Positions 4,042 through 57,768 of a stretch of DNA of 64,000 bases are shown in pieces. The notes under the pieces were generated by a model. The model searched no databases. It saw only the letters and a program-made list of their open reading frames with translations, and was not told the DNA's origin. This DNA comes from a phage: the NCBI GenBank assembly GCA_020773975.1, contig GCA_020773975.1_3638.1; one strand, 5' to 3'. How positions within the stretch are numbered: the first letter of the stretch is position 1; each line of letters opens with the position of its first letter. The position numbers and the translations under genes were made by a program.

Positions 4042-4453
4042 TCATCTTATCCAGTTTTCGCCACATATCCCACACACCACCATTACCTATTGTGTTTTTC
4101 GATGGAGTCACACAGGCGATAAATTCCAGATCAGTGCCCTTATTCATAAGATATTCAGATACCAACCCTGAAGCGATCAGTTTTATATTTTCAAGGTCTT
4201 CTTCAAGCTCCTTAATACGAGCCTGTGCTTTTTCAATTTCTTCCTTATGTCTTTTGTATTCTTGAAAAGCGTGCCAAGATTGTCCTTTATGAACACTTTC
4301 ACAAATGGCCTCTACTTGCTCTTTTGAGAGCACAGTGAGTGGTTGAGATGGGAAAATCATTATTTGTCCACTATCCCAATCGAATCCTGCATGTATAGAT
4401 TGAACATCAACCGAAGGTGTTGCTCCAACAGTACCTGGGGAATGAATAACCAT
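4010..4453 (-). CDS. hypothetical protein (coiled-coil segment)
   Basis: 147 aa; heptad-like charged stretch EEIEKAQARIKELEEDLENIK. Confidence 0.5.
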   Translation of the reverse strand: MVIHSPGTVGATPSVDVQSIHAGFDWDSGQIMIFPSQPLTVLSKEQVEAICESVHKGQSWHAFQEYKRHKEEIEKAQARIKELEEDLENIKLIASGLVSEYLMNKGTDLEFIACVTPSKNTIGNGGVWDMWRKLDKMIGGKVEKSQS

Positions 4454-4634
4454 CGTTAATTTTAATCAAAGGGAAGTCAGTAATCAAGACATGATTTAAA
4501 CCAACGGCAGTAACAAGGTATTTCTGCTCTGGATCCCAAGACAATTTAGACTTGTACAAACAACCTTGTCTAATTTTAAAATCTTCCACACACCCACCCT
4601 TCACAGTTGTGATCACGACATCCTTCAAAATCAT
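4407..4634 (-). CDS. hypothetical protein
   Basis: 75-aa ORF; its 5' end overlaps the next gene so the start is uncertain. Confidence 0.35.
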   Translation of the reverse strand: MILKDVVITTVKGGCVEDFKIRQGCLYKSKLSWDPEQKYLVTAVGLNHVLITDFPLIKINDGYSFPRYCWSNTFG

Positions 4635-5262
4635 ATGGGCTGTACTGCCAGGTTATTTTTCCGCAGTGCGGACAATTCCAGCGCACTTTCCCGCTTCGTG
4701 ACCTCTTCCTTCTGTTCTGCTTTTTCAACCAATCAGGCATGACCAAACCTGCGCCCTGAACCATTGTTCTGCGGTTAAAGTTATTGATATTGAACGTCCG
4801 GCGCTTTGCTGCATCAGCAATGGAAAATGGCAACCAAACTATTCCTGGTTCGTTTTTGTTGGCGACGCTAAAGATGGTCGCTTTACTGAAGTCATCTGTT
4901 GGCAATCCACCGTGTTGAAGCCAGTAAACATCGTTGCCGTTCCAGCTACCTTTTTTGTAGGCCACATACGCAGTGCAATCTGACTCAATCAGGCTTTCTG
5001 TAGGGATGTACTGGCAATCAACGTGCCACACAGCCATTGCATCCACACTATCAGCGCAAACAGGTTGATCGATATCTCGACCACAATTCCAGGCTTTTTG
5101 GGCTTCTTCCAGCGTGTAAACATGAGCGCGATCGATATCATAACTGTAACCATTGCCGTTATGGCAATGGAATGAGGCGTTATTACCCACAGTTTCACGC
5201 AAGCACATCATGTAAAAACGGTTGCTCACTGGTTGCCTCCGTTGCGAAGCTGTTCCGCACAA
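4576..5262 (-). CDS. Cys/His-rich hypothetical protein
   Basis: 228 aa with CPHCG and HNCEGWVCG motifs near the C-terminus (possible Zn ribbon). Confidence 0.45.
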   Translation of the reverse strand: MCGTASQRRQPVSNRFYMMCLRETVGNNASFHCHNGNGYSYDIDRAHVYTLEEAQKAWNCGRDIDQPVCADSVDAMAVWHVDCQYIPTESLIESDCTAYVAYKKGSWNGNDVYWLQHGGLPTDDFSKATIFSVANKNEPGIVWLPFSIADAAKRRTFNINNFNRRTMVQGAGLVMPDWLKKQNRRKRSRSGKVRWNCPHCGKITWQYSPYDFEGCRDHNCEGWVCGRF

Positions 5263-33539: not shown

Positions 33540-33740
33540 GATCAAATTAAACTAACTTATAAGATCTATTAAATATAATACTACGTATTATAATACTATG
33601 ATCTATTTAATATAATATATTATACTACGTATAATATAATTTAATATGATCTAATATAATATAATATAAATTATATAATATAATTTAATATAATACTACG
33701 TATTATATATTATAATATATATATTATATAAAATTTATTT
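33540..33740. repeat. AT-rich iteron region (candidate origin of replication)
   Basis: About 200 bp of roughly 90 percent A+T with three copies of GATCTA(T)TTAATATAATA and three copies of ACTACGTAT. Confidence 0.6.
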
Positions 33741-36262: not shown

Positions 36263-37087
36263 ATGACAAGTATTTTACACACGACAGGTATTTTACCACA
36301 CTATCAGAAGGACTATTCTTTCCCTGATTTCTCTGGGGATATGTTGCAAATATACGACAAAGTGCAAGGCGAAGTGTCGGAGCTACAGTTTAGTTCAGAC
36401 CCTGATGATGAGCAAGAGTTTGATAAACAGATTTGTCGTGTAGAAAACGAGCTTATAGAGCTACAATCATTAGCCAAATCAACAGATATCGAAGACTTAA
36501 GGCGATACGTCGAGAATCTTGAAAATTTAGTGTTCGGGCTTTCGCAAGCTATTATAAACATTGGTGAAATTGCTAAAATTGCCTCTGACAAGTTGCCAGA
36601 CAACGCAGAAGATATTGAAGAAGCGTTGCAGAATATCTGCTATGAAGGAAGTTCTGCTCTCGGTTGTGAATGTAATCTAGGAAATGCTCTTGAAGAACGT
36701 GGGTGGAGCCTAGCCCAAAAAACTTTTGTTTATCTTGTTATTGGTGGTGAGTTCCCACGACTTTTACAACTTAATGCCCTTTTTGGAAACAGTCAGAGCG
36801 ATAATATTGCATTAGGTATTGATGGTTGGTTCTGCTTAAGAGGTAAAGAATTAACATTTTGTCGTGGCGATGATGTGTTAATTCTCAATGCTTCTAAACC
36901 TGGTGTTGGAATAACAGTAAGACTTAATGGTAAGTCCACTAATTTCCACACCACAGAATTGACAGATATTTTTATGGACATATTCGATCCTACAGAAGAC
37001 GAAATTCTTATGTATGAAATGACCAGTGGAAAAAGGTATGATATTTTGTTGTGGAGAAATATTTTCGGTAAGAAGAAAAGTTTATAG
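36263..37087 (+). CDS. hypothetical protein
   Basis: 274-aa acidic ORF. Confidence 0.5.
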   Translation: MTSILHTTGILPHYQKDYSFPDFSGDMLQIYDKVQGEVSELQFSSDPDDEQEFDKQICRVENELIELQSLAKSTDIEDLRRYVENLENLVFGLSQAIINIGEIAKIASDKLPDNAEDIEEALQNICYEGSSALGCECNLGNALEERGWSLAQKTFVYLVIGGEFPRLLQLNALFGNSQSDNIALGIDGWFCLRGKELTFCRGDDVLILNASKPGVGITVRLNGKSTNFHTTELTDIFMDIFDPTEDEILMYEMTSGKRYDILLWRNIFGKKKSL

Positions 37088-37142: not shown

Positions 37143-37359
37143 AGTTTCAACAACAGATATTTTCTTGATACTTTAAAACTCTACCAGAATTTAAAATTCT
37201 GTAAATTTAGAAAACTATTACTTATAAGCGTTTCGACACAATTTTGTTATGAAAGCCTTGTTTTTATATAAAAACCTGTTTTAGCATGAGTGGTAGGATC
37301 ACACTCCATACTACCTTTATTCCTACAGATGAGCACCTCCATGTCCGAAAACTCGGTTC

Positions 37360-37560
37360 TCGATCGAAAATTCATTTTCCAGATCGTATTTGCTCCTTAC
37401 GGAGAAAATTTTTTAGGGCTACAAATTTCAGTTCTCGATCAGTTTTTCGATTTCAAAATCGTATTTGTTTTTTCTTGCGAAAAATTTCGCACGCTCAGTT
37501 CTCGATCGAGTTTTCAAAATCGAAATCGTATTTGCTCTATAGCGCGAAAAAATTTTTATG
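37360..37560. repeat. three imperfect direct repeats of about 65 bp (GTTCTCGATC ... ATCGTATTTG ... GMGAAAAATTTTT)
   Basis: GTTCTCGATC begins at 37366, 37431 and 37498; each unit also contains ATCGTATTTG and an A-run/T-run; a fourth diverged copy is at 45983. Confidence 0.6.
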
Positions 37561-38285: not shown

Positions 38286-38340
38286 AAAAATTTTTTAAAA
38301 ATAGTATTGACAGCGGGGGTAGTATAGATCTACTATGTGC
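38286..38340 (+). promoter_or_regulatory. sigma70-like promoter with AT-rich UP element (copy 1 of a duplicated 27-bp module)
   Basis: AAAAATTTTTTAAAAATAGTATTGACA (38286-38312), then TACTAT at 38331-38336 (18-nt spacer). Confidence 0.5.
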
Positions 38341-39136: not shown

Positions 39137-39142
39137 AGATAG

Positions 39143-39189
39143 TTGTCTTTTAGTTATGCCGTGGTAGAATACACGGCATAGATAAGAGA
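39143..39189 (+). promoter_or_regulatory. promoter-palindrome module (type B, copy 1)
   Basis: -35 TTGTCT (39143-39148), 16-nt spacer, -10 TAGAAT (39165-39170); inverted repeat TATGCCGTG (39155-39163) / CACGGCATA (39172-39180) brackets the -10; followed by GATAAGAGA. Confidence 0.5.
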
Positions 39190-42729: not shown

Positions 42730-42778
42730 AAAAATTTTTTAAAAATAGTATTGACATACTGGCGGCATATGGTATCAT
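42730..42778 (+). promoter_or_regulatory. sigma70-like promoter with AT-rich UP element (copy 2 of the duplicated 27-bp module)
   Basis: AAAAATTTTTTAAAAATAGTATTGACA (42730-42756), identical to 38286-38312, then TATCAT. Confidence 0.5.
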
Positions 42779-43370: not shown

Positions 43371-43376
43371 AAGTAG

Positions 43377-43423
43377 TTGACTTTTACTTATGCCGTGATA
43401 GAATGCACGGCATAGATAAGAGA
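43377..43423 (+). promoter_or_regulatory. promoter-palindrome module (type B, copy 2)
   Basis: -35 TTGACT (43377-43382), 16-nt spacer, -10 TAGAAT (43399-43404); arms TATGCCGTG (43389-43397) / CACGGCATA (43406-43414); followed by GATAAGAGA as in copy 1. Confidence 0.5.
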
Positions 43424-51069: not shown

Positions 51070-51270
51070 CTACATCCTCCACGTTAGTTTCTGAGCGATC
51101 TCTAACAAAGCATCTATCTTGTGTATATACTCTTTCCTTTTCTCACTGCCAGGAGGGAATTGGTCTCTCGTTTGCATCAAGGTTTTTATCTCTTCAGACA
51201 GATGATTAAGGATTTCAACGCGCTCACGTTTTCGACCTAGTTGTTCAATTTCTTTATCACTACAATTCAT
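51070..51270 (-). CDS. hypothetical protein
   Basis: 66-aa ORF. Confidence 0.4.
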   Translation of the reverse strand: MNCSDKEIEQLGRKRERVEILNHLSEEIKTLMQTRDQFPPGSEKRKEYIHKIDALLEIAQKLTWRM

Positions 51271-51283
51271 AACACACCCTACA

Positions 51284-51631
51284 GTGTTGTCAAACTATGA
51301 GAGTATGATAATATATGGTGCAACAACTTACAATAGCAGGAGACAATTTATGACTGTGAAAATACCTAAAGGCGGCAGACCAGATAGAAATGCATGTGAC
51401 ATGCGTGTAAGGGTAGGGAGAATGTGTCTAATTTATGGAATAACTTATCCACCAATGGTGCGACTTAATGGTAAAATATGTAAGGTCATCGACATACCAA
51501 AAGATAGAACAACACGCTTCTTGTGCAAGGTCAAAGGTGAAGAGAAGGTTTTTAACATCTCACACAAAAACCTAACAGTTTTGGATCTTAATGACAACAT
51601 TGTTATCTCCAAATACCGTTGTATAAACTAA
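51284..51631 (+). CDS. hypothetical protein (lone plus-strand ORF)
   Basis: Ends immediately before the bidirectional terminator; likely starts at the internal ATG (MTVKIPKGGRP...). Confidence 0.35.
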   Translation: MLSNYESMIIYGATTYNSRRQFMTVKIPKGGRPDRNACDMRVRVGRMCLIYGITYPPMVRLNGKICKVIDIPKDRTTRFLCKVKGEEKVFNISHKNLTVLDLNDNIVISKYRCIN

Positions 51632-51632
51632 A

Positions 51633-51665
51633 ATAAAAGCCCCGCATGGGGCTTTTATTTTTATT
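51633..51665. terminator. bidirectional rho-independent terminator
   Basis: AAATAAAAGCCCCGCATGGGGCTTTTATTTTTATT: GC stem flanked by an A-run and a T-run, between convergent ORFs. Confidence 0.7.
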
Positions 51666-52401
51666 CAAAATCATCAACACCGCTATCGGTAAGGTTTTCT
51701 CTGCTCGAAGGTTTTGTCGAAAGAACTTGCTCAAGCAGAGAGGAAAATTTCTGCAAATTACTTACAGAAGAAGTCCCTGCTGCCATGGCAAGCATATCCA
51801 CTTCTTTTTCGGTAGGTTGCGTCCAGTCTAGAAACATCTCTTTCATGTACAACGTTGATATCCCTATTGGTGTGGCGTGGTCAACCCTATCAGTACGGAC
51901 CCAGAAAAGAACTTCTTTCTCTATACATACACACAAAGCAGCACCCAACGAGTATCCTGTAACGATGGATGGATAACTTGCAACGAGGATCTCGACATTC
52001 AGGTCATCCCAGTGAAATACAACACCCAAACACTTCATATCCACAATGTCTTCCACTGCGGGTCTTAGCTCCTCATGGGAAGAAAGGGAGTCATAGTTAA
52101 TATTCTTTATGAATTTAAGAACGTCTTGGCGGTTGTAGGCACAATCGTTATTACCTTGCTTCCAGTAGCCCCAAAATGAAGTCGATAAATTCAACCAAAA
52201 ACTTGCAGTTGTCCCTAATGTCTCAGCCAGTTTTTCAGCCACATCTTCTGATACTTCTTCCATGTTATATAGGATAGTTCTTAACTTATTTACAGGTATA
52301 CCAGATCTGTCGGCAAGATCATCCACACACCAACCTAATGGATCCAGATATTCGTGGATAATAACCTCCCCTGGTGACACTGGTGCTCTTTCTTTCTGCA
52401 T
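51661..52401 (-). CDS. HigA/XRE-family HTH protein fused to a C-terminal domain of unknown function
   Basis: From ATG 52401 (AAGGAG SD): PGEVIIHEYLDPLGWCVDDLADRSGIPVNKLRTILYNMEEVSEDVAEKLAETLGTTASFWLNL matches the HigA antitoxin HTH pattern; about 170 further residues with no recognisable motif. Confidence 0.6.
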   Translation of the reverse strand: MQKERAPVSPGEVIIHEYLDPLGWCVDDLADRSGIPVNKLRTILYNMEEVSEDVAEKLAETLGTTASFWLNLSTSFWGYWKQGNNDCAYNRQDVLKFIKNINYDSLSSHEELRPAVEDIVDMKCLGVVFHWDDLNVEILVASYPSIVTGYSLGAALCVCIEKEVLFWVRTDRVDHATPIGISTLYMKEMFLDWTQPTEKEVDMLAMAAGTSSVSNLQKFSSLLEQVLSTKPSSRENLTDSGVDDFE

Positions 52402-52421
52402 TCTCTCTCCTTTCTCTCTAC

Positions 52422-52448
52422 CAGAAAACCCTGCAAAGCAGGGTTTTG
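52422..52448 (-). promoter_or_regulatory. hairpin just upstream of the HigA-like gene (terminator/attenuator-like)
   Basis: Minus strand AACCCTGC-TTTG-CAGGGTT followed by TTCTGG; sits between the upstream stop and the SD. Confidence 0.4.
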
Positions 52449-52454
52449 TTACTA

Positions 52455-52658
52455 TCAGCATTTAGGCGAGCATTTATCGCACGGGCATGAAATTCCGTGG
52501 AAACACAAACCTGTTCCGTCTTTCTTGACCCCTGTTCCACCACATTGGGGACAACTATCGTGTAAGCATTTTGTTTTTGTTGTCTCCTCTTTATCTTTAT
52601 TAAAGAGGTTTTTCATAATCATTTTCTGTTGCTCAATCGTAAACATTTTCGTCCCCAA
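52455..52658 (-). CDS. small Cys-rich (Zn-ribbon-like) protein
   Basis: CLHDSCPQCGG ... CFHGISCPCDKCSPKC. Confidence 0.45.
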   Translation of the reverse strand: MGTKMFTIEQQKMIMKNLFNKDKEETTKTKCLHDSCPQCGGTGVKKDGTGLCFHGISCPCDKCSPKC

Positions 52659-52827
52659 AATCTTTCAAGTGCTTCTACCTCTCCCATGTTTGGGAAGATA
52701 CCACAGAGACTTTTATAGCCTCTTTAATACTTTTATCCCACTGATGCGCCATTTACAGGCTTTTAAGTACCCACTACTATTGTAAAAGCCTACTCTCCGA
52801 AAGATACTGGTGAGGAACTTTTTATTT

Positions 52828-53133
52828 TTACGAATAATCTTCTTTTTCACTCAAAAACCTCGTTTCTTCAAACTGCTCTGGTGTCAATAAACTTGTTCCT
52901 ACACGACTGCCATTACCACACATAATGGGCACGGCAATCATGTGGCTATCCTTTTCTGCATTAGCTGTATCAAGGTACTGCCCATAACGTTTGATAAGTC
53001 GGATACTCATTTTTGAATTAGCTAAAGCCCTTGTATTATAGAGATAATCCTCAATGTACAAACGCAATGCGTTTGCGGATTTTAAGGATTTCGATAAGAA
53101 TAATTTATTACGCCGTACCAGTTTTTTCTTCAT
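52828..53133 (-). CDS. hypothetical protein
   Basis: 101-aa ORF. Confidence 0.45.
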   Translation of the reverse strand: MKKKLVRRNKLFLSKSLKSANALRLYIEDYLYNTRALANSKMSIRLIKRYGQYLDTANAEKDSHMIAVPIMCGNGSRVGTSLLTPEQFEETRFLSEKEDYS

Positions 53134-53326
53134 GCAACCCTCGCTTGTGCCTGTACATTGCTAGGGGCCATACAGAACTCACTATAAAGCATTTCCATGC
53201 CCAACCCCATGCAGTTTTTGGTGCATATACCTGCTCAAGTATTTTACTATTCTCCATCTCTGCGGTATGTACAAACCATACAGCAATATACAATGTAACT
53301 ATAATGTAGATAAAGCCATTAATCAT
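53108..53326 (-). CDS. small membrane protein
   Basis: 72 aa, two hydrophobic segments. Confidence 0.35.
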   Translation of the reverse strand: MINGFIYIIVTLYIAVWFVHTAEMENSKILEQVYAPKTAWGWAWKCFIVSSVWPLAMYRHKRGLHEEKTGTA

Positions 53327-54380
53327 TCATCTTATCCCAACACATTTGTTGTGCTGTCATCAAAACATCGGCAGCAAAGTTAAGATCTGTTGTTTTCGGT
53401 AAATGCGTGTTCTTGTACAGAGTGTTACGAATATAATCATCCTTCTCTTCTGCCCAAGCCAAGAGCTTCTCCAAAGACCATGCGCCATTCCTGATTGCAA
53501 GAAGCTCCTGAGCATCAGGTCTTTTTACTAAGACTTTCCCTTCCGTCAGGATTTCTTCCGCTTGACGCATCAGCCTAACCAAGTGCATACCATGCTTTGA
53601 ATCGAAGCCATACTTTTCTTCTAACTCATGACGTGCTGGGTTTCTGTTTTCAACCCATGTCCAGTAGTTCTTATGCTTTTCCTTTGCTTGTTTATGCTCA
53701 TCTGCCAGATATTTAACGATTAAAATTGGCTTACGTTTCTTATCTTCGTCAGAGAACTGCTCGTATGGAACTTTACGAATAGAACCATCAGAGTTAAACA
53801 AACCAGCATTGTCGCGTGTTCCGATTACACCATAGATATTATCACCCATGGGTAAAAAGACACACAACTTGTTAAGATCATCCAACATTTTCTGGAAGTC
53901 TTTGTGTTTTGTAAGATTATCATCCATCCACGAGTGTGTCAAGCGCATGAACTCTTTTTGTGTTGGTTGCTCTTTAGGCTGCGGGTTATTAATCCATTTA
54001 TTATGGCCTTTGATACGCTTCAGTTGCGCCATCGCATACCCAGAAAAAGTAAAAGCAACTTTACTGGATAGGAGTTTTGGCGCTTGCTCGCGTAGGTACT
54101 CGTAAACATCTGAAGTTTGCAGAATGTCACTTCTATCAACAAACATAAGCTCGATGATGTTTGGGTTCATATCAACGAACAACTTCATGTAGTTTGTTAG
54201 CTCATACAGCTTACCATCCTCTTCATCAATAAGAGTCATTTCTCTGTCAACGAAAAACGGGGTAAGAATGCTTTTAGGCTCTGCACAATAAATTCCGCGA
54301 ATATCCACATCGGATGTTGGTAAGTTAGTTCCATAGGCAATGCTACCACTGTAGCAGCGCATTAGTTCTAGTTTCTTCAT
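53319..54380 (-). CDS. nucleotidyltransferase-fold protein (Pol-beta-like NTase superfamily)
   Basis: GSIAYGTNLPTSDVDIRGIY = GS...G...SDxD signature of the minimal nucleotidyltransferase fold; 353 aa. Confidence 0.55.
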   Translation of the reverse strand: MKKLELMRCYSGSIAYGTNLPTSDVDIRGIYCAEPKSILTPFFVDREMTLIDEEDGKLYELTNYMKLFVDMNPNIIELMFVDRSDILQTSDVYEYLREQAPKLLSSKVAFTFSGYAMAQLKRIKGHNKWINNPQPKEQPTQKEFMRLTHSWMDDNLTKHKDFQKMLDDLNKLCVFLPMGDNIYGVIGTRDNAGLFNSDGSIRKVPYEQFSDEDKKRKPILIVKYLADEHKQAKEKHKNYWTWVENRNPARHELEEKYGFDSKHGMHLVRLMRQAEEILTEGKVLVKRPDAQELLAIRNGAWSLEKLLAWAEEKDDYIRNTLYKNTHLPKTTDLNFAADVLMTAQQMCWDKMND

Positions 54381-55150: not shown

Positions 55151-55561
55151 TTACTCACCTTTCAGCTTAAAACTTTTCAATGTTTTGATAAAGTTTTTCT
55201 CTGCTGGTGTGTAAGTGTGAACGAAACCTGTTTCTTCACAGGTGTAGGTATCATTAACCTCCATTGCGTGTGGAGGGATAAATGCACCATCAGGAACAGA
55301 CTTATATTCCGGGTTGTAGATAAATTCCGGCAGTACAACAGCTACAGCAGTCATTGCTCCGTTCAAGGCTTTCTTTTCTTCACGCCACCACGCTACTGGG
55401 TAAGTCTCTAAAGACATTGCCTGGGTAAGAAAATCTTCAAGCACGGACTGATAACCGCCATTCAAAACAATAATGGTCTTATCTTCTTCTTTCCAGCATT
55501 TCAGCCAATGGTGTGCAGTGATCTGCTCTGGTGTATATGCTTCACCACTATGCAAAACCAT
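55151..55561 (-). CDS. hypothetical protein, possibly PTH2 (peptidyl-tRNA hydrolase 2)-like; 5' end uncertain
   Basis: The 27 in-frame codons upstream of the ATG encode ...YISGIHAGIQSAHAIAEL (cf. the PTH2 motif GK.AAQC.HAA) with no ATG/GTG/TTG; downstream WLKCWKEEDKTIIVLN also recalls PTH2; weak. Confidence 0.4.
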   Translation of the reverse strand: MVLHSGEAYTPEQITAHHWLKCWKEEDKTIIVLNGGYQSVLEDFLTQAMSLETYPVAWWREEKKALNGAMTAVAVVLPEFIYNPEYKSVPDGAFIPPHAMEVNDTYTCEETGFVHTYTPAEKNFIKTLKSFKLKGE

Positions 55562-56200: not shown

Positions 56201-57445
56201 TTAGAATAACATATCTCTGCTGATTGCTTTACGAATAGCATCAATACGGGCTACTCGCACAGCTTCACCAATCTCTTTACCCTTCTTACCCTTTTCCAGA
56301 AGGGGTTTTGTTATAGCTTTAGAATCAACTTTTGTCATAGCGTCGTAGGCTTCCAACAAAAAATGACCTTGAAGATAAGGTTTATGTCTAAAATCACCAC
56401 CTCTTCCTTTAGCATCACAATAACACGCATCTGCAAGTGTGTAAACCTTCATTTTCTGGTCAGCTTGTCCAGCAGCTTCAAATATTTTCATGATGCTTTT
56501 TGGTTTCAAACCGTTGTTACCATCTCTGGGAGAGATGGTGTGCACTTTTGTGTGATTTTCTGCAACATATTTTGCCGTGTCACGATAGATATTATAAATC
56601 TTCAACCTTTCACACAAGGATTGGATAACATCTACCCCAGCTTTCTCATGACCATGAAGATTACCATTGTCCTTGTAAGTTATAGCTTTGCCAAAATCAT
56701 GGCACAGCACAGCAAACTTGGTCAGTGGATCAGCTTCTAATTCATCAGCAACCCGTAACGCTAGAATTGTATGGGTGTAAGCATCCCCCTCTGGGTGATG
56801 TTCTTTAGGTTGTTGCACACGACGTAGGGCTTCCAGTTCAGGAAGTTCGCCAATACGTCCCATATTGACAGCAAAAGACCTGAAATAACCACTCTTTAAG
56901 GCTTTCAACATTTCCTTCCATTTACGATAGGCGCTTATTTCTGCCAAAGAGTGTCGGTTGTCATAAGCCAGTTTAAAAGTTTCTGGATGGATATGCCATT
57001 CTTCCCCAAGCTGGGCTTTAAATCTAAACAGGCGTAGAATACGTAATGGATCTTCAATAAACGCCTCCGATGTATGACGTAATGTTTTAAGTCCTAAGTC
57101 AACCTGACCACCAAAAGGATCAATAATCTCACCACTGTCAACATCCATCGCCATGGAGTTGATGGTAAGATCTCTACGTGCCAAATCCTCTTCCAGAGTT
57201 ACATCTGGACTAAAGCATACCTCAAATCCTTTATGGCCTTCGCCTGTTTTTCTTTCTGTGCGTGCAAGAGCGTACTCTTCTTTTGTTTCTGGGTGAAGAT
57301 AAACTGGAAAAGATGCGCCAACTTGTGTGAACCCTCTTTTCAGCATCTCTTCATGCGTAGCACCAACAACCACATAATCACGGTCTGATATTTCACGACC
57401 TAACAATTTATCTCTTACTGCGCCACCTACCAAGTATACCTTCAT
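56201..57445 (-). CDS. cca: tRNA nucleotidyltransferase (CCA-adding enzyme) with HD domain
   Basis: From ATG 57445: MKVYLVGGAVRDKLLG...DRDYVVVG (class II CCA motif, cf. E. coli Cca MKIYLVGGAVRD as recalled), RRDLTINSMA, HD motif VLCHDFGK; about 415 aa. Confidence 0.8.
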   Translation of the reverse strand: MKVYLVGGAVRDKLLGREISDRDYVVVGATHEEMLKRGFTQVGASFPVYLHPETKEEYALARTERKTGEGHKGFEVCFSPDVTLEEDLARRDLTINSMAMDVDSGEIIDPFGGQVDLGLKTLRHTSEAFIEDPLRILRLFRFKAQLGEEWHIHPETFKLAYDNRHSLAEISAYRKWKEMLKALKSGYFRSFAVNMGRIGELPELEALRRVQQPKEHHPEGDAYTHTILALRVADELEADPLTKFAVLCHDFGKAITYKDNGNLHGHEKAGVDVIQSLCERLKIYNIYRDTAKYVAENHTKVHTISPRDGNNGLKPKSIMKIFEAAGQADQKMKVYTLADACYCDAKGRGGDFRHKPYLQGHFLLEAYDAMTKVDSKAITKPLLEKGKKGKEIGEAVRVARIDAIRKAISRDMLF

Positions 57446-57768
57446 TTCTTCGCCCACGTATTCATATAATTAACAATATCTTTTACGGTTCTCTTTCCGT
57501 CCAGTGGATAAACCATGTCATCGCTCATCCCACCGTGTTTTAGCATTGCTACCAGTCTAGTATATACCTCTTTTGGTCTTTTGCAAGTTCTTTTCTTCCA
57601 TTTATGACCGTCTGGGAAGTACTCCTTATCTTCAAGAGAGATATGAAGGATGTCCCCTATAAACTCTTTAGCCTGTGTGCTGTAAAGTGGACGGTGGAAT
57701 ATGTAGAATTTCATTGCTTGCTCCTTTGTTGTAATAACAATATCAGTGCAAGCCACCTGTGTCAACAC
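57442..57768 (-). CDS. hypothetical protein
   Basis: ATGA overlap with cca. Confidence 0.4.
   Translation of the reverse strand: MLTQVACTDIVITTKEQAMKFYIFHRPLYSTQAKEFIGDILHISLEDKEYFPDGHKWKKRTCKRPKEVYTRLVAMLKHGGMSDDMVYPLDGKRTVKDIVNYMNTWAKK

Follow-up and report, generated by a model that had tools for sequence, protein, structure and literature searches.

The subject of this study is a minus-strand gene in a 64,000-nucleotide stretch of phage DNA (contig GCA_020773975.1_3638.1 of NCBI GenBank assembly GCA_020773975.1), hereafter the window, in which a helix-turn-helix (HTH) module of the HigA antitoxin type is joined to an unrelated C-terminal module. The region 51200-53200 showed 94% DNA identity to the Escherichia phages Av-05 (an Avunavirus of the Vequintavirinae, 121 kb) and vB_EcoM_TH18 (TH18) and to three partial records, and because of its identity to Av-05 and TH18 the window is assigned to the genome of a virulent rV5-like myophage. 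An earlier note on this DNA had described a HigA-like HTH fused to an uncharacterised domain, with a hairpin and a gene for a Cys-rich mini-protein upstream; all four elements were present on the minus strand where it had placed them. It was right about the fusion and missed that the 170-aa domain it called unknown is encoded by a gene of its own in sister phages. As the orthologue of this module stands alone at the same genome position in Seunavirus, the gene is, on comparison of these genomes, a lineage-specific in-frame fusion, and its architecture is both real and unusual.

The fusion gene occupies 51661..52401 on the minus strand and encodes 246 amino acids, from an ATG at 52401 to a stop codon at 51661-51663 (open reading frame [ORF] list and sequence). 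The mechanical ORF is longer (51661..52461, minus strand, 266 aa). An AAGGAG Shine-Dalgarno sequence precedes the ATG at 52401, and the Av-05 and TH18 orthologues start at the same codon. Approximately 8 of the 20 in-frame codons located 5' of this ATG differed from TH18 in an alignment read by eye, while the HTH was about 96% identical, and this upstream stretch is therefore considered non-coding. The 266-aa frame from the ATG at 52461 was thus rejected, its extra codons having diverged in the manner of non-coding DNA and the relatives using the downstream ATG. The full-length fusion protein was spanned by a match to phrog_1381 (E=3.8e-87), and near-identical phage sequences were all that word-indexed searches returned, whether the query was the whole protein or the HTH alone. 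The Av-05 orthologue is labelled "plasmid antitoxin with HTH domain" in RefSeq and "putative pirin" in GenBank, and the TH18 copy is labelled "hypothetical protein".

The first module (residues 1-80; 52162..52401, minus strand) is a HigA/YbaQ/GraA-type HTH of the XRE class. The HigA/XRE likeness reported earlier for the N-terminal 65 residues was borne out by a match of residues 5-74 to positions 2-71 of the 81-position NCBIfam profile TIGR02607 (HigA family antitoxin), with 57.7 bits against a curated cut-off of 47.7 bits; the generic Pfam HTH_3 model scored below its cut-off on the fusion protein. The module aligned to the solved structures of YbaQ (2eby, E=1.3e-11), C. burnetii VapI/HigA (3trb) and P. 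putida GraA (6f8s), and the XRE-type fold of these proteins was recognised in it. The family signature, P-G-E-[VI]-[IL] ... E-Y-L-x-P-L-G ... T-T-x-x-F-W-L-N-L, is carried by the N-terminal 75-80 residues, and identity to any solved or plasmid HigA was about 32-38%. In the recognition helix, Asn38 (the usual family residue), Lys39 and Arg41 are retained in the pattern N-K-x-R-T. The DNA contacts of GraA are made by Pro39, Asn42 and Arg46, of which Asn42 and Arg46 touch the backbone (PMC6393540); the phage residues aligned to these three are Asn38, Arg41 and Tyr45. Because N-K-x-R-T is kept, DNA binding by the module is plausible, if not assured. The fifth helix of GraA (alpha-5) has seven turns, forms the dimer and caps the partner monomer (PMC6393540). 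In the phage protein, the family homology stops at about residue 80-85, and the fusion joint truncates this dimerisation helix; with the family homology ending there, dimerisation may have passed to the C-terminal module.

Ratios of non-synonymous to synonymous substitution rates (dN/dS) were calculated among the window, Av-05 and TH18, and were 0.14-0.29 for the whole gene, 0.04-0.13 for the HTH and 0.19-0.71 for the C-terminal module. These values are noisy, as they come from few substitutions; they show strong purifying selection on the HTH, which is kept more strictly than the C-terminal module, and the maintenance of both. The low ratio of the HTH ruled out a decaying remnant.

A linker containing the fusion joint (residues 81-90; 52132..52161, minus strand) connects the two modules. 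It was located by alignment, in which R91 of the fusion (NRQDVL...) is the counterpart of the Met with which the free-standing homologues begin (MQDEL...), and the predicted model had a predicted local distance difference test (pLDDT) score below 50 at residues 72-89. The C-terminal module (residues 91-246; 51664..52131, minus strand; net charge -12) is an orthologue of the PVP-SE1 gp172/GAP31_104 family (phrog_19128). No Pfam, NCBIfam or meaningful PADLOC match was obtained for these residues, and a HMMER scan of 1.84 billion representatives returned only the module's own cluster and three long repeat proteins, which were rejected as spurious because their scores were the sum of several weak stretches. 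Searching phage genomes with tblastn gave weak but consistent matches, at 26-34% identity, in the Seunavirus phages PVP-SE1, SSE121, GAP31 and 4MG. The Seunavirus homologue (PVP-SE1 gp172, GAP31_104) is a free-standing protein of 164 aa that matches phrog_19128 over its full length, and 4MG gp179 belongs to the same family. The fusion protein itself matched phrog_19128 over residues 96-227 (E=5.9e-8), and pairwise BLASTP of the module with a free-standing homologue gave E=1e-11 over 140 residues. A profile search found 24 members in two architectures only, free-standing (160-172 aa) and HTH-fused (243-246 aa).

The two forms share 27-31% identity and an invariant motif, W...V...Y..MF.D...PT..E..ML.M..G, and in both cases the gene is the last before a bidirectional terminator, at the same position in the genome. 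The Seunavirus proteins are near-neutral and preceded by an endonuclease VII/HNH-like gene, whereas the window module is strongly acidic and HTH-fused. Synteny extends beyond the gene: both lineages have it at an operon end, with an RlaP-like nucleotidyltransferase in the operon, a bidirectional terminator and a convergent gene whose products are 40% identical. The slot 5' of gp172 holds the endonuclease VII/HNH-like gp171 (phrog_1035) in Seunavirus and the HTH coding sequence, in-frame, in the Av-05 lineage. An obligate pairing of gp171 and gp172 was ruled out, as many of the 135 phage records with a gp171 homologue have no gp172.

The earlier note had proposed structure prediction for the C-terminal domain. 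A domain-only model built from 20 sequences had a moderate confidence (pLDDT 70.4, predicted template modelling score 0.65) and a predicted topology of three helices, six strands and two helices. The family profile matched no PDB sequence, and none of the 20 members had a credible Pfam match. Foldseek searches of BFVD identified as convincing neighbours only the family itself (SSE121 homologue, template modelling score 0.60, probability 1.0), with marginal matches to two other Vequintavirinae proteins. Because there was no Pfam, PDB-sequence or convincing BFVD neighbour beyond the family, the module is classified from these comparisons as an ORFan domain restricted to the Vequintavirinae, and because it is free-standing in sister phages it must have an activity of its own. 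Elsewhere in the window, a 274-aa ORF at 36263-37087 (plus strand; phrog_12959) ends with the motif that also closes the module, [DE]xF[ML]DxxxPTxxExxMxxMxxG. BLASTP (E=6e-4), hhalign (probability 55%) and hmmsearch (E=7.7e-5 among 713 window ORFs) give this likeness marginal support, and this ORF may be a distant paralogue of the module or may only share a short motif with it.

The minus-strand operon and the convergent gene are closed by a bidirectional intrinsic terminator at 51630..51661, with perfect arms of 14 nt (-22.1 kcal/mol, z=-4.7), and PVP-SE1 carries an annotated bidirectional terminator at the equivalent position. The convergent gene (51350..51631, plus strand, 93 aa; phrog_13562) served as the synteny anchor, being the one whose product is 40% identical to PVP-SE1 gp173 (E=2e-19). 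In Av-05 and in L012, a metagenomic relative of 90% identity, an insert of about 330-440 nt lies between the stop codon of the fusion gene and the terminator and convergent gene (3233-3560 in L012, about 4360-4795 in record L001). It is absent from the window (51632-51660) and from TH18; no convincing ORF was seen in the L012 insert, and an Rfam scan of this non-coding insert in the relatives gave no match. At the other end of the operon, a consensus-like sigma-70-type promoter, TTGACA-17-TATTGT, was located at 57765-57737, with a terminator before it, and there was no strong terminator between this promoter and 51661, giving an operon of about 6 kb. Among the other products of this operon are an RlaP-like ("RNA repair pathway") nucleotidyltransferase (53319-54380, minus strand), a CCA-adding tRNA nucleotidyltransferase (56201-57457, minus strand) and a small hydrolase (55151-55561). 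No tRNA genes were found in the 64-kb window. The content of the operon may reflect an RNA-repair or counter-nuclease theme.

HigA genes are characteristically found next to a cognate HigB/RelE/ParE toxin gene, and no such gene adjoins the fusion gene, as the earlier note had observed. Neither neighbour (the 63-aa Cys-rich protein and the convergent 93-aa protein) matched a toxin family. As a control, a close plasmid HigA (38% identical), which sits directly downstream of a RelE/ParE-family toxin gene, was used as a query and recovered the phage HTH in the window with E=1.3e-14; the RelE/ParE partner toxin of the YbaQ-like plasmid HigA recovered nothing from the 64 kb, its best match having E=4.4.

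A stem-loop, AAAACCCUGC-UUU-GCAGGGUUUU, lies at 52425..52447 (minus strand), 24-46 nt upstream of the start codon, with perfect 10-nt arms and a 3-nt loop (-13.8 kcal/mol, z=-2.5). It is unique in the window, where 0.05 such structures were expected by chance, and it is identical in Av-05 and L012. The stem is kept in TH18 (-17 kcal/mol, z=-4.1), where the flanking intergenic DNA has diverged: its loop is 3 nt longer through an insertion, one A is replaced by G so that a G.U pair forms, and its base is extended. As TH18 tolerates both a change in arm spacing and a wobble pair, which would be unfavourable for a dimer operator of fixed spacing, the element is more readily seen as an RNA stem-loop than as an operator. 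HigA-type autorepression would call for a palindromic operator in the gene's own promoter; the palindrome is perfect, no promoter-like site was found there, and the arm spacing in TH18 is 3 nt greater. The earlier label of "attenuator-like hairpin" was sustained for the hairpin and not for the attenuator. The criterion for an intrinsic terminator was a GC-rich stem-loop with a U-tract directly after it (5 or more U within 8 nt); here there is no proper U-tract, four U belonging to the stem and being followed by CUGGUAG, and the hairpin was not among the terminator-like sites when these were scored. Its 101-nt context folded no better than shuffled sequences (z=-1.58), Rfam gave nothing above threshold around the fusion gene, and no leader peptide or alternative fold was found, although no dedicated search for alternative structures was made. 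The element behaves like an intercistronic RNA stem-loop, which might be a weak terminator or a stability element, and the attenuator label is unproven.

The nearest known proteins to the first module are the TIGR02607 antitoxins (P. putida GraA, C. burnetii VapI/HigA, E. coli YbaQ and P. vulgaris HigA), whose signature and XRE fold are shared by the window protein. In contrast to these antitoxins, whose single domain of about 95-120 aa includes a long alpha-5, the window protein has 246 aa, in which a linker and then the unrelated 156-aa module take the place of alpha-5. It is also far more acidic, it has no cognate toxin, and its gene lies at the end of a long operon of a virulent myophage and not in an autoregulated bicistron. 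Orphan HigA-like genes in many virulent and jumbo phages are already known as annotations: the phrog_1381 "plasmid antitoxin with HTH domain" genes of lytic or jumbo phages (Klebsiella FBKp24 gp216, Yersinia phiR1-37 g308/g309, Aeromonas Aes012), some of which have extra domains, encode an HTH 30-35% identical to that of the window. None of them has a gp172-like module; in FBKp24 gp216 (L005, 1084-1806) the HTH is C-terminal, behind a different N-terminal part of 139 aa. In phiR1-37 (L006, 1084-1800), two "antidote" genes lie side by side. Neither FBKp24 gp216 nor phiR1-37 g308/g309 has an annotated toxin next to it, and no demonstration of the function of phage orphan HigA-like genes was found in the literature searched. 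What is new in the window is the fusion to the gp172-family module and the origin of this fusion, of which the same literature contained no description.

A parallel in design is offered by AcrIIA1 and AcrIIA15, bifunctional anti-CRISPRs that combine an antitoxin-like HTH with an effector domain (PMC9410906). Like these proteins, the window protein starts with an antitoxin-like HTH, to which a C-terminal module known elsewhere as an autonomous protein is fused. It differs from them in having a C-terminal module without sequence or fold similarity to theirs, no CRISPR link and no operator-bearing promoter directly upstream. The resemblance is an analogy of design and not one of membership.

On this analogy, the fusion protein is tentatively interpreted as a two-module early protein, in which a DNA-binding regulator would be tethered to an effector, and not as one half of a toxin-antitoxin pair; this is the explanation that we favour, without considering it probable. 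The first module would bind DNA as a dimer. The second would aid dimerisation, the HigA alpha-5 being cut short at the joint, and would supply an autonomous, lineage-specific effector activity, probably protein binding or host take-over. The fusion arose in the Av-05-like lineage by the in-frame joining of the HTH and the second module, the HTH coding sequence occupying the slot of the Seunavirus endonuclease VII/HNH-like gene. Expression is probably early, by read-through at the end of the ~6-kb operon from the promoter at 57765-57737, and the upstream stem-loop, as an RNA hairpin or weak terminator, might tune or stabilise this read-through. An effector plus an HTH fits better than an HTH plus a mere dimerisation tail, because the second module exists alone and hence has a function of its own.

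Several findings weigh against this interpretation. The sister phages lack any HTH at the locus of the fusion gene. Within the recognition region, the backbone-contacting Arg46 of GraA is replaced by Tyr45, and the G-x-R loop that follows the recognition helix in the family reads M-E-E. The HTH (isoelectric point [pI] 4.4) is unusually acidic, with a net charge of -7 over 72 aligned residues compared to about -2 to 0 in YbaQ, VapI, GraA and 3cec (manual count). No operator was found, the sole local palindrome (52425-52447) behaving like an RNA hairpin, and no promoter-like site adjoins the gene. Finally, the model of the second module is of moderate confidence only (pLDDT 70), with no structural neighbour outside the family.

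The main alternative to the tethered regulator, already raised in the earlier note and possible but less expected, is that the protein is an orphan antitoxin or decoy, the HTH fold of which binds and neutralises HigB, GraT or RelE toxins of the host or its plasmids that are released or activated in infection; the acidic C-terminal module would then add affinity, stability or a second target. In agreement with this, the protein matches the HigA equivalog TIGR02607 above its cut-off, and its nearest cellular relatives are plasmid HigA proteins encoded beside a RelE/ParE-family toxin. The 32-38% identity to cellular HigA, on the other hand, gives no sign of the recent capture of a specific host antitoxin. 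There is also a precedent for neutralisation by a folded domain, as GraA neutralises GraT via its folded HTH domain, at the face opposite the DNA-binding site (PMC6393540); however, the phage protein has lost part of alpha-5 at the joint, the helix with which GraA forms its dimer and caps the partner monomer. The acidity of the whole protein (pI 4.5, net charge -19), compared with the near-neutral gp172 homologues, would suit basic RNase toxins, and the RNA-repair theme of the operon (CCA-adding enzyme, RlaP-like nucleotidyltransferase) also counts in favour. Orphan antitoxins are known from other phages (PMC11825919), and RelE/ParE-superfamily modules have been implicated in phage defence (PMC11980606). 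Against this, related phages on overlapping hosts do without the HTH, and the literature searched gives no experimental link between HigA-like phage genes and counter-defence. A wider form of the idea, in which the HigA fold and the structurally novel acidic effector would together make a counter-defence protein that disarms HigB/RelE-type toxin-antitoxin systems, related abortive infection or other host immunity, is considered rather unlikely.

The earlier note had also proposed that the protein regulates palindrome-containing promoters of this phage. Two sigma-70-like promoters (39139-39180 and 43373-43414, plus strand; TTGTCT/TTGACT, spacer, TAGAAT) each contain a perfect palindrome, TATGCCGTG-N8-CACGGCATA, at 39155-39180 and 43389-43414, straddling the -10 box. 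HTH dimers bind palindromes, and a dedicated repressor or activator of these promoters could be accommodated by two sites that are both perfect and never arise in shuffled sequence. However, neither position nor sequence ties the promoters to the fusion gene. The palindrome is retained in homologous promoters of the Klebsiella phages 05F01 and FKP3 (Stephanstirmvirinae) and of Salmonella phage SSBI34, where changes in one arm are matched by compensatory ones in the other; this points to selection for symmetrical DNA or for a promoter hairpin. A tblastn search for the HigA-like HTH yielded no Salmonella phage among its 62 records, and hence none is detectable in SSBI34. As SSBI34 has the palindrome without a HigA-like HTH, the palindromes have no need of this protein; the proposal is weakened, and such a dedicated role is improbable. 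An example of the compensatory changes is TATGACCTG...CAGGTCATA; the homologous promoters are in records L007, L008 and L009.

A single-chain toxin-antitoxin or chaperone arrangement, with the C-terminal module as a RelE/BECR-like toxin or SecB-like chaperone fused to its own HigA, is very improbable: fused mono-gene modules exist in the RelE/ParE superfamily (PMC11980606) and the predicted helices-sheet-helices topology is superficially similar, but a Pfam or PDB sequence signal was seen in 0 of 20 family members, and free-standing homologues occur in phages in which tblastn detects no HigA-like gene. The residual probability falls to functions not foreseen here.

Whichever explanation holds, the occurrence of the C-terminal module as a free-standing protein in one genus and as an HTH fusion in another is a natural experiment, and a comparison of both forms could distinguish between a regulator, a toxin decoy and a DNA-targeting handle for effectors. 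A decoy would add the large superfamily of RelE/HigB toxins to the targets of phage antitoxin mimics, of which few are known. Should the protein prove to act in counter-defence, no phage HigA decoy would have been characterised before it, and an anti-defence role would follow for the gp172 family (phrog_19128). If the protein is an ordinary regulator, the gain is a modest one in annotation, namely the origin of the fusion, the corrected start codon and the independence of the neighbouring gene.

This neighbour encodes the Cys-rich mini-protein (52455..52646, minus strand), an ORF product of 63 aa with 8 Cys. The earlier note had given 67 aa, which corresponds to a TTG start (ORF 52455..52658); the protein is present, and the conserved ATG at 52646 is the more likely start. 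A DnaJ-type cysteine-rich zinc finger, in which CxxCxGxG motifs are repeated, was not recognised: the mini-protein has a single such motif (CPQCGGTG) and six further Cys. No Pfam or NCBIfam match was found, and PDB matches were non-significant (L32, E=0.42; anti-TRAP, E=1.8). The mini-protein matched phrog_17149 (E=4.5e-25), a family with 153 phage records, most of them without this HTH; it occurs in Klebsiella T5-like siphophages and in Mydovirus, with neither the HTH nor the gp172 module. In L012 (2257-2484) and L013 (366-593), the mini-gene has a 1-nt deletion (GTCAAGAAAGAC to GTCAAAAAGAC), with loss of the second Cys cluster. The frame in this lineage then continues across the hairpin and ends 16 nt short of the HTH start, and the HTH gene is intact. 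The deletion is present in Logan and ENA assemblies from several samples. Because the mini-protein is widespread without the HTH and frameshifted in a relative that keeps it, a role as its specific functional partner was ruled out, and the gene is, on this distribution, an independent neighbour.

Other repeated elements were observed in the window. An identical 27-nt element, AAAAATTTTTTAAAAATAGTATTGACA, occurs at 38286-38312 and 42730-42756 (plus strand), 4.4 kb apart, and contains an UP-element-like A/T tract and a -35 box; the two copies are probably strong early promoters. Two further regions, 33568-33719 and 37352-37556, neither with long ORFs, hold an AT-rich array of ATAATA(C)TACGTAT-type repeats and three tandem units of about 67-75 nt of the form CTC[GA]GTTCTCGATC...TCGTATTTG...

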